From Cupriavidus necator (lineage in GTDB: Bacteria; Pseudomonadota; Gammaproteobacteria; Burkholderiales; Burkholderiaceae), in assembly GCF_016127575.1 (NCBI RefSeq), contig NZ_CP066020.1:60001-92000 (forward strand): a DNA stretch of 32,000 nt, read 5' to 3'. The position numbers were made by a program, and so were the translations under genes. This document shows, one piece after another, positions 1,505 to 26,520 of the stretch (position 1 is the stretch's first letter; each line of letters starts with the position of its first letter). The notes beneath the pieces were generated by a model. The model had not been told where the DNA came from and searched no databases. It saw only the letters and a program-made list of their open reading frames with translations.

Positions 1505-1741
1505 CTACTTTTTTCTCTGCATAAGGGAACCCGGTCTTAGAGAGGCGATGAGTTCATCCGTAGCCTTGAAGCGTCCGGAACGCAGATTTGGCGGGACGAT
1601 TGCTTCGAGCGCTTCCAATTTTACCGATGGGTCCGCACGTGTGTAGATCTCGGTCGTCTGCATGTGTGCGTGGCCGAGCCAAAGCGAAACCTTTCTGAGA
1701 TCCTTGGTGGCTTGCAGGACGGACAACGCACAAGTGTGCCT
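1505..1741 (-). pseudogene. ritC: ritC-type tyrosine recombinase, C-terminal fragment (ritC4 remnant)
   Basis: (R)HTCALSVLQATKDLRKVSLWLGHAHMQTTEIYTRADPSVKLEALEAIVPPNLRSGRFKATDELIASL... is colinear with the RitC1 C-terminus (RHTMAMDLLQAGVDRSVIALWLGHESVETTQIYLEA...GRYRPADQLLGFL). It starts exactly at the R-H of the H-x-L-R-H box. Confidence 0.75.
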
Positions 1742-1769
1742 CCTATATCGTTCACGATATAGGAGGCAC
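1736..1769. repeat. 34-bp perfect hairpin palindrome at the RIT1 ritA-side junction
   Basis: GTGCCTCCTATATCG TTCA CGATATAGGAGGCAC: 15-bp perfect arms and a 4-nt loop, with each arm ending in the AGGCAC core. Confidence 0.9.
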
Positions 1770-1897
1770 TATGTGCCCTTCCCGACTATGTCTGGTAATC
1801 GAACGATAGCCCTATTTCGCGGGCAAACAGATGGCCGCAGATAGAGATAGTCTTGACTCCTTCCTTCAGCCCCAGAGCATTCGGGAAGGAGTCCATC

Positions 1898-3136
1898 ATG
1901 AGATACACCATCCATGACCGTGTCGTTCTCGCACGCGCACCAGACGGCCCGCTCGCGTCCCATATCGCCGCCTTTGCAAGCTCGATCGCTGCGCAGGGAT
2001 ACAGCACCCAGTCACTGAAGTATCACGTTCGGCTCGTTGCAGGTTTTAGCCGCTGGCTCGGTCGAAACGGAATTGACTTGCGTAATGTCTGTCCTGATCA
2101 AGCGGCGCGTTACTTACGTTAACGCGCGCGGCACGTGCGACCGGGTCCGGGAGATCGTGCTGCGCTCAAGCATCTCATTGCTTTTCTCGATCGTGAGAGG
2201 CTGATTCCGGCGCAGAGGACGCCCGCGCGTCGGCTGACCCCGGTTGAGTCCTGTACCCTGGCTTACGTTGAGTATCTTCGCGAGGTGCGCGCCCTGTCCA
2301 AGGCGACGATCATCAACTACACGCCGTTCATCAGGGAGTTTCTCGAAGATTGTTTTGGTGACCGGCGCGTCAGGCTTTCGCGTTTGCGTGCCGGCGATGT
2401 CGTGAACTTTGTGCAATTTCAGGCACAGCATCTGCATCTGAAGCGCGCGAAGCTCATGACGGCAGCGCTGCGATCCTTCCTACGTTACGCGTGCTATCGG
2501 GGCGACATGACGCTCGATCTGGCCGCCGCTGTTCCCGTGGTGGCCAACTGGTCGATGCAGTCCATCCCTCGCGGGATTCCCCCAGAGCAGATACAGGAAC
2601 TGCTGGTCAGTATCGATCGACGGACTGCCGTTGGTCGTCGTGATTACGCCATCATCCTGCTACTCGCGCGCCTGGGACTGCGTTCTGGGGAAGTGGCATT
2701 TCTCGACCTCGACGATATTGACTGGAACACAGGAGTTTTAAGCGTGCGCGGCAAGAGTGGCCTGCGTAACGGGCTGCCTTTGCCCGCCGATGTTGGCAAG
2801 GCGATTGCAGCGTACCTTCGCTACGGGCGACCGCAGAGCACGAGTCGCCGTGTATTTTTGCGTGCGAAGGCGCCTTTCACCGGCTTTCGTAGTGCGTGTG
2901 GCGTGGGCTCCATCGTTCGGCATTCGCTCCAGCGCGCCGGTATCAACGCCCCAACCACTGGGGCACACCAGTTTCGTCATGCACTGGCCAGCCAGATGCT
3001 CCGTCACGGCGCGTCACTCCGTGAGATTGGTGAGTTGTTGGGACACCATCATCCACAGACCACGTCGATCTACACGAAGGTCGACATCAAGGCATTGCGT
3101 ACGCTGGCCGTACCGTGGCCGGGAGGTGTGCGATGA
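1898..3136 (+). pseudogene. ritA: ritA1, RitA-type tyrosine recombinase interrupted by an in-frame TAA at 2120-2122
   Basis: The track ORFs 1853-2122 and 2135-3136 are one frame. RIT2 reads ...QYLRYRARHVRPG where RIT1 reads ...RYLR*RARHVRPG (TAT to TAA). A GGAAGGAG RBS precedes the ATG at 1898. Motifs LARLGLRSGE, HQFRH and LGHHHPQTTSIYTKV are present. Confidence 0.85.
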
Positions 3137-4077
3137 ACACGCTGCGGCAGGCCGTTCAGGAGTATCTGGACCTCAGGCGGAGCCTGGGCTTCAAGCTGAG
3201 GGAGGCCGGCAAGGCCTTGCCTGATTTCGTCGCGTTCATGGAGAGGCACCGTGCTTCCTTTATCACCCAGGCGTTGGCGCTCTTGTGGGCCCAGCAACCT
3301 TCCAACGTCCAACCCGCCCGCTGGGCGAGCCGACTCAGTATCGTGCGCGAGTTTGCGCGTCATCGTAGTGCGACCGACCCACGCACACAGATTCCTGCAC
3401 CGGGTCTGCTACCGTTTTCGCCGAAGCGGGCCCGACCATACCTATACTCGAGCGACGAGATTCGCAGACTACTCCATGCTGCGCTTCAGATGCCCTGCCG
3501 CTTCGCGCGTGACGAACTGCAACCATGGACCTATTACTGCCTGTTTGGCTTGCTGAGTGTATCGGGAATGCGCCTGGGCGAAGCGCGCAATCTTGAGCTT
3601 CAGGACATCGATCTGACAGCGGCAATATTGACGATCCGCGGCGCCAAACTTGGCAAGTCCCGGTTCGTTCCACTGCATGCGTCGACCTGCAACGTGCTCG
3701 CGGACTATATTGCACGACGCAAACGTCATTGGGCGGGGCGACCCGTGTCCTCCTACTTGTTCGTGTCTAACCAGGGCAACCGTCTGGATAGTGGCGAGAT
3801 TCATCGACACTTCTATGCATTGTCCCGGCAGATCGGTCTGCGTGGCGCAGCCGACAGTCACGGCCCACGTCTGCATGACATGAGGCACGTATTTGCGACG
3901 AATACGCTTTTACGCTGGTACCGTTCCGGACAGGACCCCGAGCGCCGCCTGCCCATCCTGTCAGCTTACCTCGGTCATGTCCACATCGAGGATACGCAGT
4001 GGTATCTGAACGCCTCGCCGGAGCTGATGCGCGAGGCGATGCGCCGGCTCGAACAGCGCTGGGAGATTCAACCATGA
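3133..4077 (+). CDS. ritB: RitB-type tyrosine recombinase (RIT1)
   Basis: MNTLRQAVQEYLDLRRSLGFKL...; catalytic motifs SGMRLGE, GAKLGKSRFVPLH, HDMRH and LGHVHIEDTQWY. The start overlaps the ritA1 stop (ATGA at 3133-3136). Confidence 0.85.
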   Translation: MNTLRQAVQEYLDLRRSLGFKLREAGKALPDFVAFMERHRASFITQALALLWAQQPSNVQPARWASRLSIVREFARHRSATDPRTQIPAPGLLPFSPKRARPYLYSSDEIRRLLHAALQMPCRFARDELQPWTYYCLFGLLSVSGMRLGEARNLELQDIDLTAAILTIRGAKLGKSRFVPLHASTCNVLADYIARRKRHWAGRPVSSYLFVSNQGNRLDSGEIHRHFYALSRQIGLRGAADSHGPRLHDMRHVFATNTLLRWYRSGQDPERRLPILSAYLGHVHIEDTQWYLNASPELMREAMRRLEQRWEIQP

Positions 4078-24544: not shown

Positions 24545-24685
24545 GACTGCGGAGGTTGCGCACGCTGTTTGTTGGCTGCGGGCCTCCCCATCTTGCCCAA
24601 CTTTTATGTAGAGTTTCTACGAGCGGAGACCTTTGCTATCGCGGGGCTGGATCCGATACTGCACATAAAAACTTTCGGCCGGTAA

Positions 24686-26040
24686 TAGCGCTCGGTCGTA
24701 GACGGTTGTACGTGCCACATCAACTGCCGCAACTGATCGAGCGCCCGCGTGTACTTCGTCTCATTCGCTGTCATCGTGTCGACCATGTTCAGCCCGTAGG
24801 TCGCGCGCAGATCGTGGAAACTGAACTCGTACCTGGGGTTGCCAAGCTGCACGCGCATCATGGGTAACAGTTCGTCCCTGATGAACTGGCGCACGGCCTG
24901 CCCTGTCTTGACGTGGCGGCGTACCTGCGGGCCAGTGCTGACCGGGCGGCGCGACGCGCGATCCTCGTAGAGCGGCGCACCGCGATAGCTGAGAAAGAGC
25001 GGCTGGACGGGATGATCGCCGCCGTCTGCCAGCTGGCGACGCTTGCGCGCGCGATCGCTGTGCACATAGGTGTAGAGCCGTTCATAGAAACTGCGCGGCA
25101 GGTGCAGCACGCCCTTGACCCCGCCCTTCGTGTCGATGCCCGTACCCGGCCCGCAGGCGAGACGGATGTCGTCGCCGTGAAACTCGCCCGGTTTGCGCAT
25201 CACGTGTCTCGCGCGCACGGTCAGTACCGTCTGAATGCGAGCGCCCGTCAACAGCGCGAACAGATGAACGAGCGTCATCTCGGTATTGCCGAGAGTGGCC
25301 AACGATTCAAGCAGCACCGACTGCTCGGCAGAGGGCAGCGGGCGCAAGCGACCACCGTCCTGGATGTGATCGTCCCACGGGTCATCTGCGCGCCGGCCAC
25401 TGATCGACAGGTCGGTGGTCTTGACCTCGATCGCGCGGCTGAAGCCCTTATGGTCTCTGAACTCGATGAAGCGGCCAGATTCGGCCCACGGCGCGTTCGC
25501 GGGCCTGAAGCCTGCCTCGGTCATGAGCCAGCGATAAAAGCGCACTACGGCGCCCATACGACGCCTGGCGACGCCCGGAGACAGTTCGCCTGCCTGCACG
25601 GCCAGCCTGATCGAGGCACTGTAGCGGTAGGTTGGACGTTGCCGCTTGTTCGCGGGAAATGCCAGCCAGTCAACGCCCTCGTTATCCAGATAACGACGGA
25701 ACGCCACCAGGTCGTCAGCAATGCTGGCGAACGTCAGCATGTTGGGCGACGGCTTCGACTCAATCATGTCGATGAGCCACAGGTTCGCCTCAGCCCACGG
25801 TGCGCCGTCAGCGAGCCGGACAACAGGAAAGAGAGGAAAGGTGCCTGTGATCCACTGCGGGCGGTCGTCGCGCCGCTTGCCGGTGTCAGGGTCTGCGAGT
25901 GGGACCGTGTGATAGATCGTGCCGCCCTCGGGCGTGGTAATGCTGACCGGCGTCGCGCCGGATGTGTTGCGGTCAACGACCTCGGTCAACGGCAGATGCC
26001 GGATGGTCGTTCGTCTTGCTGTCATCGCCCAGATCCTCAT
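24686..26040 (-). pseudogene. First module tyrosine recombinase, truncated inside the catalytic Tyr codon by RIT5
   Basis: Motifs LLTGARIQTVLTV (Arg I), FHDLRATYG (H-x-x-R) and MWHVQPSTTERY (His/Tyr). After ...TTERY the frame runs into the RIT5 terminal IR (YRPKVFMCSIG...*). ATG at 26040 or 26025. Confidence 0.75.
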
Positions 26041-26111
26041 GCTGTGTTTGAGTGGGCGTCCTCATTAACACAACGTGCGAGTATCAAGAAATCGTTCCTG
26101 GCTTGCGCATA

Positions 26112-26520
26112 CGCCAAATACCTTCAGGCCGGTGCTGTCGACGACCAGATGCAGCGACTGACTGGCGCGCTGCACCGGCAGCACCACGTTCAGATCCTGT
26201 GCGCGACGGCTCAGGGTCGAGTAGTTCGGCACCGGCAAATCGGCGAAGGCAAGCTTGCGCAGGCTCATGGCAAAGCCTTGCAGCGCGCGCAACGGCAGGC
26301 GGAACACTTGCTTGAGGCCAAGCAGCATCTGAATGACAGCATCCGAATAGACGCACGGGCGGCCGCGCTTGGATACACCCACGCCGGGCGACGCCAACAC
26401 GCTTTGGTCTATCCACATCGTGACGTCTCCCCTTGCAATCAGACCGGCGTTGTATTGCGCCCAGTTCTTGACGCGATAGGTGCCCTTGGGCTCGGCTTGC
26501 TTCTGTGTGTCCCTGCGCAT
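26112..26520 (-). pseudogene. IS903-like DDE transposase, N-terminal fragment (ends ...HLVVDSTGLKVFG)
   Basis: MRRDTQKQAEPKGTYRVKNWAQYNAGLIARGDVTMWIDQSVL...RGRPCVYSDAVIQMLLGLKQVFRLPLRALQGF...HLVVDSTGLKVFG then enters the inserted element (VCASQERF...*). It joins in frame to 16732 (KVFG|EGEW). Confidence 0.8.

Follow-up and report, generated by a model that had tools for sequence, protein, structure and literature searches.

RIT elements in the pHG1 junkyard of Cupriavidus necator probably insert at conserved-motif codons of other mobile elements

Anatomy of the Nested Elements

The stretch considered here (the window, 32,000 nucleotides of Cupriavidus necator) corresponds to part of megaplasmid pHG1 of strain H16 (NC_005241.1, approximately 30178-62177; by megablast, window base 1700 is plasmid base 31877). 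This portion of pHG1 is already known as a "junkyard" region: RefSeq annotates a series of "site-specific integrase" genes beside the hydrogenase genes, and nearly all of the DNA is mobile-element DNA. It harbors five RIT elements (RIT1 to RIT5), each with the recombinase genes ritA, ritB and ritC, and one GInt-like element; the subject of this report is the ends and insertion sites of these RITs and of their relatives. The anatomy was derived from repeat pairs, the open reading frame (ORF) map and direct reading of the sequence. The interrupted genes all lie on the minus strand, and the RITs form one nested stack, with the GInt-like element and RIT5 separate from it.

The outermost RIT, RIT4 (1441..15524, minus strand; delimited by inverted repeat (IR) pair I6 and sequence reading), splits a Tn5-type (IS4-family) transposase gene. 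The N-terminal part of this gene ends in ...CIQDTTEL (15525..15812, minus; Pfam Tnp_DNA_bind and DDE_Tnp_1, and alignment to Tn5 transposase 1MUS), and the C-terminal part, starting with (EL)DFNGQAIAG... (700..1440, minus), is itself truncated near 700. The 20-nt palindrome of RIT4 occupies 15505-15524, the duplicated target cores are CAACTC (1435-1440) and CAGCTC (15525-15530, GAG CTG on the minus strand), and the inverted core adjacent to the IR lies at 15499-15504. Its trio is partly preserved and comprises an intact ritA4 (14092..15405, minus; Pfam Phage_integrase and SAM_1), a split ritB4 and the C-terminal part of ritC4. The N-terminal part of ritB4 (13605..14116, minus) ends in ...VIRSSKF plus a first core, TCGCAA (13610-13605), where RIT3 begins (5414..13604, minus; IR pair I10). 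RIT3 contains ritA3 (12249-13482), ritB3 (11320-12270) and a split ritC3, with the palindrome CTACGCCGCTAGCGGCGTAG at 5414-5433, the IR-adjacent core TCGCAA at 5434-5439 and the target-side core CAACAA at 5408-5413. Beyond RIT3, the middle part of ritB4 ((N)KSRLVPLH...PTPHSLRH; 5185..5413, minus) runs to its terminal core CGGCAC (5190-5185).

The ritC3 gene is in turn interrupted by RIT2 (5771..10534, minus; ritC2 5909-6982, ritB2 6904-7866, ritA2 7845-9083). Its N-terminal part ends in ...KKRVTPHVLRH (10535..11323, minus) and its C-terminal part reads RHTAAMELLQAGVD...QIYLD... (5548..5769, minus). The RIT2 palindrome lies at 5771-5790 and the cores are AGGCAC (10540-10535), GAGGCAC (5791-5797) and GTGGCGG (5764-5770). 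RIT1 (1743..5184, plus; ritB1 3115-4077, ritC1 3999-5072) follows the middle part of ritB4 and is bordered on the other side by the C-terminal part of ritC4 (RHTCALSVLQ...GHAHMQTTEIYTRAD...; 1513..1741, minus); its palindrome lies at 1743-1762 and its cores are GTGCCTC (1736-1742), GAGGCAC (1763-1769) and GTGCCG (5185-5190). The ritA1 gene (1898-3136) is a pseudogene, in which an in-frame TAA (2120-2122) leaves ORFs of 75 and 333 codons; ritA2 is intact and 94% identical to it in DNA. RIT2 also carries the ISL3-family insertion sequence ISAe1 between its IR and ritA2 (approximately 9170..10483, plus; transposase 9237-10463, plus; assigned by Pfam DDE_Tnp_ISL3, annotation and repeat arms). The arms homologous to RIT1 on either side of ISAe1 overlap by 8-9 bp (1812-1820 is matched twice), which fits a target-site duplication.

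In the second nest, the GInt-like element (approximately 16731..26112, minus; ends GTATGCGCAAG...CTTGCGCGTA) interrupts an IS903-like (IS5-family) transposase gene, with an N-terminal part ...LHLVVDSTGLKVFG (26113..26550, minus; Pfam DDE_Tnp_1_5 and DDE_Tnp_1) and a C-terminal part EGEWKVRKHGYSKRRTW... (16179..16730, minus). Its first recombinase gene, ginA-like, is itself split by RIT5 (21134..24685, plus; ritA5 21206-22561, ritB5 22554-23537, ritC5 23534-24544) into an N-terminal part ending in ...WHVQPSTTER(Y) (24686..26040, minus) and a C-terminal part, (RY)LGYRENCKLF...AVAA and stop (21020..21133, minus). The RIT5 palindrome AAATGTGCTGCAGCACATTT occupies 21134-21153, its cores are GCGCTA on the minus strand at 24691-24686 and 21133-21128, and the inverted copy lies at 21154-21159. 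A fragment of the N-terminus of a DUF772 transposase beside hoxN (27786-28331, minus) is further mobile-element debris.

Surveys of Related Elements

RITs are known to combine the gene order ritA-ritB-ritC, in which ritA is long and has a double N-terminal domain, overlapping ORFs, a length of about 3.4 kb and terminal IRs (Van Houdt 2009/2012, PMC3414803; PMC2864759). Relatives were collected in three sets. Survey 1 compared a RitA alignment with one genome per species, RitA similarity being the sole criterion for the choice of loci, and gave 79 loci with RitA 45-91% identical to RitA2 from Burkholderiales, Acidobacteriota, NC10, Gemmatimonadota, Verrucomicrobiota, Chloroflexota, Myxococcota and Alpha- and Gammaproteobacteria. 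Survey 2 compared RitA4 with metagenome contigs (80 loci, 56-65% identity), and a third set holds about 20 plasmid loci. The survey samples are the best 80 matches to one query each. Automatic IR detection failed or misled at loci with long inverted flank duplications (L015, L023, L180), at L083 (IS5/IS66 damage), at L081 (ritA end replaced by IS66) and in the short-IR RIT3 clade; loci at which it failed were read by hand or dropped. All loci have the order ritA-ritB-ritC (tblastn), and the ORF map and RefSeq annotation of the window agree. RitA4 and RitA5 match Pfam Phage_integrase and SAM_1. Terminal IRs are present as pairs I2/I4/I5 (RIT1 and RIT2), I10 (RIT3), I6 (RIT4) and I8 (RIT5), and the relatives are 3380-3470 bp long.

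Common Architecture of RIT Ends

The five RITs of the window share a single layout, target-[core]/IR ... IR'-[inverted core]-20/22-nt palindrome-[core]-target (a slash marks an element or insertion boundary here and below), which recurs in relatives from many phyla. The core consists of 6-7 bp and stands in direct orientation at both junctions, in the window and in the relatives. The palindromic end reads GTGCCTC-CTATATCGTTCACGATATAG-GAGGCAC/TATGTGCCC... in RIT1, TAGCGC-AAATGTGCTGCAGCACATTT-GCGCTA/TTACCGG... in RIT5, GAGCTG-TAACGCCGTGCACCGCGTTA-CAGCTC/TAACGCAGAG... in RIT4 and ...GTTGCGA-CTACGCCGCTAGCGGCGTAG-CAAC... in RIT3. Earlier work noted that RIT ends carry an inverted repeat as well as an "overlapping palindromic sequence", but left both uninterpreted (PMC3414803). 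The palindrome adjoins the ritA end in RIT1, RIT4 and RIT5 and the ritC end in RIT2 and RIT3, while its side relative to the target core is constant in all five.

A 7-9-nt motif (CTATGTC or TTATGCGG) makes up the palindrome arms and is also present twice per IR. The arrangement of palindrome arm, 6/7 bp and first IR motif would therefore take the form of a classical tyrosine-recombinase core site: two inverted putative binding elements flank a 6-8-bp overlap, and the overlap is found at both junctions. Examples are CGATATAG-GAGGCA-CTATGTG in RIT1 and CCGCATTT-TCGATT-TTATGCAG in the metagenomic locus L136. The IR-proximal 3 nt of the overlap, CAC, are invariant in 22 tabulated elements of the clade that inserts at Arg-His codons (the RIT1/2 or R-H clade), and the three core copies within one element differ at IR-distal positions only, namely the Arg codon's wobble base and the pair of bases before it. 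The IR-proximal half of the core also looks conserved in the cores listed for other clades. This variation of the distal half, together with conservation of the flanking target DNA, bears out an earlier caution that the core alone does not suffice.

Two pairs of survey loci (L136/L138 and L147/L149) carry the same RIT between identical flanks of the IS21 gene istB in different metagenomes, with the rit genes in opposite orientation and the 20-nt palindrome on the same flank despite the gene flip. This suggests either in-situ inversion or orientation-free insertion. The same two processes fit the palindrome sides of RIT1 and RIT2 better than homologous inversion between these inverted 94% copies, which was rejected because undoing it would place palindromes at both ends of one copy. 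A crossover at the center of the palindrome (lox-like, 13-8-13) was likewise discarded: the reading frames of the targets pick up again precisely at the outer 6-7 bp rather than in the middle. In another locus, L008 (11340-11480), two tandem RITs are joined via a fused IR (..AGGAAGGGT/CTATCTACCCTTCC..) lacking cores and palindrome, which may reflect deletion of an unstable long palindrome.

Target Sites of the RIT Clades

The catalytic residues of tyrosine recombinases are R-K-H-R-H/W-Y. The initial annotation of the window had placed its insertions in DNA encoding catalytic motifs of other recombinases or transposases, and every codon string that it quoted is present where it was located. For RIT1, RIT2, RIT3 and RIT5 the targets indeed encode catalytic motifs: the second Arg and His of box II (RIT1/2), the Lys of the β-hairpin (RIT3) and the nucleophile Tyr (RIT5).

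RIT1 follows HSLRH of ritB4 (CAT TCA CTG CGG CAC, 5199-5185, minus) and RIT2 follows HVLRH of ritC3 (CAC GTG CTG AGG CAC, 10549-10535, minus); the ritC4 remnant resumes at RHT (AGG CAC ACT, 1741-1733, minus). Removal of RIT2 restores an intact RitC3 (...VTPHVLRH/TAAMELL...GHESLQTTQIYLD), and a 90% identical uninterrupted relative (L067) shows the empty site CTG AGG CAC ACG GCA. The window contains 182 MGNCAC sites on both strands, 8 of which are true box II R-H codons; the RIT1/2 family has used three of these eight (in ritC3, ritB4 and ritC4), an outcome with a chance probability of (8/182)^3, about 8.5e-5. Across survey 1, H-x-x-[R/H]-H runs in frame into CGNCAC/IR in 42 of the 50 RIT1/2-clade elements with readable ends, where a His codon at that position would be expected in about 3% of random flanks, and five further elements show the palindrome followed by RH[STC][FY]A[TS]HLL.... 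Both flanks could be joined in 22 elements, and all 22 gave uninterrupted ORFs matching Pfam Phage_integrase (PF00589). The sole invariant columns in the alignment of these restored targets are H186, R189 and H190 of box II, at the junction. The targets include SAM_4-type integrases, RitC, RitB and phage-like integrases. A third copy of RIT2 lies in a second pHG1 maze (128-138 kb) at SITPHTLRH of the ritC of another RIT.

RIT1 joins the ritB4 part (..PHSLRH) to the C-terminal part of ritC4 (RHTCALS..), and about 1 kb comprising the C-terminus of ritB4 and the N-terminus of ritC4 is gone, deleted between two R-H sites. Burkholderiaceae bacterium 16 (L002) retains the ritC4 junction, but the opposite end of the RIT has become joined to the 5' region of ritA4 (..AAGGAGGT/CGGCAC), which looks like an adjacent deletion to a pseudo-site. 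One metagenome-assembled genome of NC10 holds two different RITs (L020 with 66% and L052 with 53% RitA identity to RitA2), both at the same R-H codons in copies of one recombinase gene with identical flanks; these look like independent insertions into a multi-copy target. One family of SAM_4-type integrases is used at its R-H codons by RIT1/2-clade elements (L004/L007/L063) and at its Tyr codon by RIT5-clade elements (L082/L081).

RIT5 cuts within a catalytic Tyr codon, as first proposed from the window (GAGCGCTA at 24693-24686 and GCGCTAC at 21133-21127). Its removal restores the ginA-like gene (...WHVQPSTTERY/LGYREN...), and a profile of six homologues aligned by hhalign with 22 tyrosine recombinases at 95.8% probability; in this alignment TGAR falls on Arg I, FHDLRA on box II and the final residue of TTERY on the nucleophile Tyr. 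The nucleophile Tyr codon is the site of all five RIT5-clade insertions, which span four recombinase families and have different cores (GCGCTA, GATTTA, GGCCTA, ACGCTA): TTERY in the window, TTTIY/AKVD of a RitA (L066), AY/LTTE (L031), a site on a Burkholderia RPE67 plasmid and STTARY on a C. taiwanensis plasmid. The palindrome AAATGTGCTGCAGCACATTT is shared by RIT5 and L066, differs by 1-2 substitutions in L031 and L082, and belongs to the end lost in L081.

The site of RIT3 in ritB4 (SSKF/..KSRLVPLH) had been read as the β-hairpin Lys region, and an intact 76% identical relative of ritB4 (L102) confirms a Lys codon at the core. The sequence in L102, an empty site, is SKF-R-KSRLVPLH, which means that TCGCAA, the core of RIT3, extends over the codon for Arg and the beginning of that for the hairpin Lys. 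The K-F/x-K-S-R site is common to RIT3 and to L070, L071 (both IRESKF/GKSR) and L178, which all share the RIT3 IR; the palindrome is as in RIT3 in L070 and L071 and is found at neither end of L178. The latter, on plasmid pENH92 of C. necator NH9, is RIT3-like (RitA 87% identical) and has two inward-reading flanks, a recombinase N-terminal part (..VVVRETKFK/) and an N-terminal part of IS21 IstA that ends just past a KGIVES motif (..GIVESGVKYV/). Unrelated host RITs are also interrupted at the hairpin (L071, GKG/RKTRCTPL; L058/L062, GGKGRK/DR).

The RIT4 clade has a different usual target, the T-[ST]-[NQ] motif of IS21 IstB. Among the 65 survey 2 loci with at least 120 nt of flank, IstB_IS21 fragments adjoin the RIT in 25 (strict adjacency) to 31 (looser), and the breakpoint always falls at 193-210 of the 249-position profile, mostly at 200-203 (...RYERTSTLLTSN/RPVEDWGKLL). 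Other targets of this clade are the rve domain of IS3 (KWTY/FYLYVLLDVFSR), the C-terminus of DUF6573 and the helix-turn-helix (HTH) of IstA; T.ACCA.C immediately 5' of the core is common to IstB and non-IstB targets. The T-[ST]-[NQ] motif is presumably the sensor-1 position of an AAA+ protein. In the window, CIQDTTEL/DFNG aligns to AIEDTTSLSY of Tn5, which contains D97, and the site caagACACCACG/GAGCTG (gacACCACG/GAGCTG) matches the T.ACCA.C plus core motif. The earlier placement of RIT4 beside the first Asp of the DDE triad thus stands as a position near D97, but not as an Asp rule: across the relatives no tie to the catalytic Asp was found, these being inserted in IstB at profile positions 198-205 and in genes that share ACCA.C and the core. 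The closeness to D97 is incidental because the window site fits the DNA motif of the clade, at the T-T codons of the IS4-family DTT; judging from these letters, the insertion is best read as use of a look-alike DNA site (ACCACG plus core). A host RIT from another lineage (L045, at 16294; RitA 38% identical to RitA4) adjoins an IstB fragment starting at profile position 107 (/YLSCAIGHQAC...), directly after the Walker A GKT, a second IstB motif.

Further clades add further sites. All three copies of an alphaproteobacterial clade (Paracoccus, Sinorhizobium, Mameliella) lie inside IS66 elements at PVD[FM]R/KG of TnpB, and three of three insertions (the host of L047, Bradyrhizobium L173 and Caballeronia L174) lie at the zinc motif S/CRN[RQ][HR]CP of an IS91-family transposase. 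A Walker A target (GSGK/T) considered for L173 was discarded, since its left flank, when read on the opposite strand, gives the CRNQRCP motif of IS91; its right flank has no target continuation and no core duplication. The RIT in the second pHG1 maze that itself holds the third RIT2 copy is inserted in IS66 TnpC (...WPISNNA/..ENQIRPVALGRSNW). In CH34, a homologous element interrupts IS66 tnpA (PMC2864759). In a neighbor-joining tree of 33 RitA proteins, the elements group by target class (Tyr; Lys, nested in the R-H group; IS66 TnpB; IS91 zinc motif; IstB).

In some RIT copies both flanks are N-terminal parts of recombinase genes that read inward: L171 (pHG1 128-138 kb; 131-138 kb), L180 (EbN1 plasmid 2), L017, L038, L047 and L023. 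Their flanks are inverted duplications or two different genes, and in L038 the flank of the host RIT reads LWQLDTAS.... These copies are not assembly artefacts because they are present in finished plasmids; they probably arose by inversion between two inverted RIT copies or between IRs, which shows that RITs also drive rearrangements.

The GInt-Like Element

The GInt-like element encodes proteins of 487 aa (restored), 626 aa (19142-21022), 626 aa (17265-19145) and 120 aa (coiled-coil, 16906-17268). GInts have at one end a ginABCD operon, with three tyrosine-recombinase-like genes and a small fourth one, and carry cargo DNA between short imperfect direct repeats; the gene sizes and order of the present element fit ginABCD. 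Tblastn gave weak matches (25%) to Pseudomonas plasmids, and a Pfam search with the three large proteins gave no match. The element has short direct repeats and no cargo, with a GTATT(T)GGC repeat at both junctions and an end about 180 bp past the fourth gene. It had been described as cutting 7 codons after the first DDE Asp (VVDSTGLKVFG/EGEW); this string is present, but the crossover can be placed only at 6-8 codons after the Asp, within V-F-G. In five relatives of about 80% identity the ends are (G)TATGCGCAAG...CTTGCGCGTA and the direct repeats measure 6 bp. Their insertion sites are a DUF932 gene (NSHD/GSS), the N-terminus of an IS91 transposase, the gene of an HTH protein (on two plasmids) and another site, so a DDE-motif rule fails for this element and its position near the Asp looks incidental. 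The left flanks of three relatives contain ACTCGC[AG], resembling a sequence inside the element, which suggests ordinary similarity of attachment (att) sites.

A Proposed Model for RIT Integration

Taken together, these results make it likely that RITs are site-specific tyrosine-recombinase transposons in which each RitA/B/C clade recognizes a short DNA site coding for a strongly conserved protein motif, usually within a gene that another mobile element uses for transposition or recombination. The survey of related RITs that had been put forward as a check on the window returned clade-specific targets for related copies in about 190 public sequences. The idea that RIT cores coincide with motif-coding DNA of other mobile elements thereby extends, with strong support, to several independent RitA clades, although the motifs are not always catalytic; as a rule for every insertion it applies largely to RITs and fails for the GInt-like element, a prophage-gene 3' end in Ralstonia solanacearum and radC.

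A possible mechanism is suggested by the direct duplication of the core, the intact second core site beside the palindrome, the free gene orientation and the confinement of heterology to distal positions. The RIT would circularize or synapse its ends, so that IRR-core-palindrome-core'-IRL forms one long palindrome holding two core-type sites, each with a 7-9-nt binding motif, a 6/7-bp overlap and an inverted motif. For a RIT2 circle the predicted junction would be ...GGGCATATAGTGCCTC-CTATATCGNNNNCGATATAG-GAGGCACTATATGCCC...; a XerC/D-type site reads HSLRHSFATHLL. One of the two core sites would then recombine, by conservative site-specific recombination, with a target of similar overlap. Symmetry of the junction would allow the rit genes to end up in either orientation, with the palindrome kept on the same side of the target. 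The distal overlap would tolerate mismatch, like the coupling sequences of Tn916 and CTnDOT, and identity over a few bp would be needed; the target half-site would also be read by protein, for example, in the RIT4 clade, at T.ACCA.C. Where the encoded residues are catalytic or structural, purifying selection would keep such target DNA nearly invariant, and because the target genes move horizontally, occur in multiple copies and are not needed by the host, they would offer abundant, harmless and transferable landing sites, from which nested stacks like that of the window would follow.

Several points weigh against this interpretation. The circle and core-site model derives from sequence symmetry, and transposition, a circle junction and protein-DNA binding have been demonstrated in no RIT; the tandem junction of L008 is uninformative as a proxy for a circle junction, its cores and palindrome being gone. 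Indirect evidence of movement as a unit comes from the empty sites in L067 and L102 and from the clean restoration of the 22 target ORFs. In a mobilome study, coverage of RITs was raised and no circle junctions were seen (Nielsen 2017, PMC5737581). The samples are neither exhaustive nor phylogenetically balanced, and a single insertion event may lie behind some of the loci. Clade specificity has exceptions, because close relatives can differ in target: the RitA tree contains recent switches between L136 (IstB) and L146 (IS3) and between L113 (IstB) and L118 (DUF6573). Flanks of the RIT1/2 clade do not conform in L060, L065, L079 and at the C-end of L002 and L003, and the rearranged L017, L038, L047, L171 and L180 have target N-terminal parts on both sides. 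A RIT with RitA 50% identical to RitA4 lies in a prophage gene, 3 codons short of the stop, on two R. solanacearum megaplasmids, and published RITs interrupt radC (PMC2864759). Lastly, no catalytic role is known for some of the motifs hit (VDMR/KG of IS66 TnpB, the IS91 zinc motif and the DUF6573 C-terminus).

Some of these cases invite a simpler account, in which each clade has a site of 12-20 bp and conserved codons are merely where any fixed sequence occurs most often in genomes, catalytic targeting being a by-product devoid of adaptation. IstB, IS3 rve, DUF6573, IstA and the Tn5-type gene share T.ACCA.C and the core whatever the protein, and both the R. solanacearum insertion at a gene 3' end and the non-catalytic targets in IS66 TnpB and IS91 agree with it. 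Against it, at least seven clades have come independently to the most conserved motif of an enzyme borne by mobile genetic elements, three of them to three different catalytic residues of one enzyme family. Such convergence is hard to get without selection for conserved, mobile-element-borne sites, and we regard this account as unlikely. DNA-level recognition is common to it and to the favored one; they differ only in the claim of no adaptive link.

Chance offers a much less probable explanation: in a crowded junkyard any insertion would be likely to meet a recombinase or transposase gene, and the motif reading would be post hoc. The window is almost wholly mobile-element DNA, the motif assignments of RIT4 (D+4) and of the GInt-like element (D+6-8) are loose, and the GInt relatives follow no such rule. 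Yet the surveys contradict it for RITs: unrelated genomes and metagenomes, picked by RitA similarity only, give the same codon-precise positions, the 22 restored PF00589 targets are all cut at the same two codons, and the three R-H insertions of the window carry the low probability given above. Least probable of all is survivorship, whereby RITs would insert at nearly any 6-bp core and persist only in dispensable mobile-element genes: host-gene insertions would be selected against and core heterology is tolerated, but neutrality would scatter insertions along mobile-element genes and intergenic DNA rather than on one codon pair, whereas the sites seen are IstB profile positions 200-203, the box II R-H and the Tyr codon, and the MGNCAC sites of the window, mostly in dispensable DNA, stay unused.

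Relation to Other Systems

Complex combinations of RITs on pHG1 and EbN1 plasmid 2 were noted previously (PMC3414803), and single insertions are known in a Tn6049-like transposase gene, radC and IS66 tnpA (PMC3414803, PMC2864759). The target specificity of RITs is listed as "NT", not tested (Idola 2023, Table 1, PMC10214605). No RIT target rule was found in the literature searched, which did not cover the main RIT survey (Ricker et al. 2013); nor could we find there the nucleotide-level architecture, the duplicated core or the rule that RitA clades home to conserved motif codons, which are new in that respect.

The Tn554/GInt/SE family resembles RITs in using several tyrosine recombinases with high insertion specificity (PMC5385486, PMC10214605), and its 6-bp staggered overlap, with mismatches resolved either way, can be likened to theirs. 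Circular intermediates have been shown for GInts and SEs. Unlike RITs, these elements lack long terminal IRs and an inter-core palindrome, and their targets are single chromosomal sites (att554, an ABC-transporter gene's 5' end, the 3' end of ssb) rather than enzyme motifs of mobile elements; orientation is free in RITs and controlled by TnpC in Tn554. Tn916 and CTnDOT share with RITs a largely tolerated overlap heterology, short homology beside one cleavage site and an overlap carried between sites. They are conjugative, use one integrase with Xis, and, rather than coding motifs, target bent AT-rich DNA or a site of 10 bp.

The Tn5053/Tn402 "res hunters", the IS1111-attC group and IS4321-IS5075 likewise treat conserved features of other mobile elements as safe, mobile landing sites; IS4321-IS5075 insert in the IRs of Tn21-family elements. 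These elements use non-coding recombination sites or IRs and DDE/DEDD transposases, in contrast to RITs, which insert within the codons for a rival's catalytic motifs and disrupt the gene. The logic is the same for homing endonuclease genes, inteins and group I/II introns located in conserved catalytic motifs, in that a site encoding essential residues cannot mutate away and is durable and widespread. However, homing elements splice out and the host gene works, whereas RITs do not splice and the target gene stays split.

Implications

RITs are common in many phyla, and the att-site model and the clade-to-target map make their mobility, attachment and target choice testable, by predicting the circle junction, the target sequences and the synonymous changes expected to abolish insertion. 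The results explain why nested and truncated integrase genes pile up into mazes in genomes, the pHG1 junkyard and EbN1 plasmid 2 being examples, and they describe a way for mobile elements to attack each other's enzymes. For annotators, many pseudogenes listed as partial integrase, IstB or IS66 are scars of RIT insertion. Heterology-tolerant, orientation-free integration at a short defined site may also interest genome engineering. A wider view, to which we give even odds, is that RITs are widespread hyperparasitic transposons whose lineages home with codon precision to invariant catalytic or structural motifs in the machinery of others (Arg-His, Lys or Tyr of tyrosine recombinases, IstB AAA+ motifs, IS66 TnpB and TnpC, the IS91 zinc finger) and retarget through small changes in half-site recognition, taking part of the old overlap along. 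If so, RITs would disable rival elements and ride on them, and their palindromic two-core att site would be an uncharacterized solution for orientation-free, heterology-tolerant integration.

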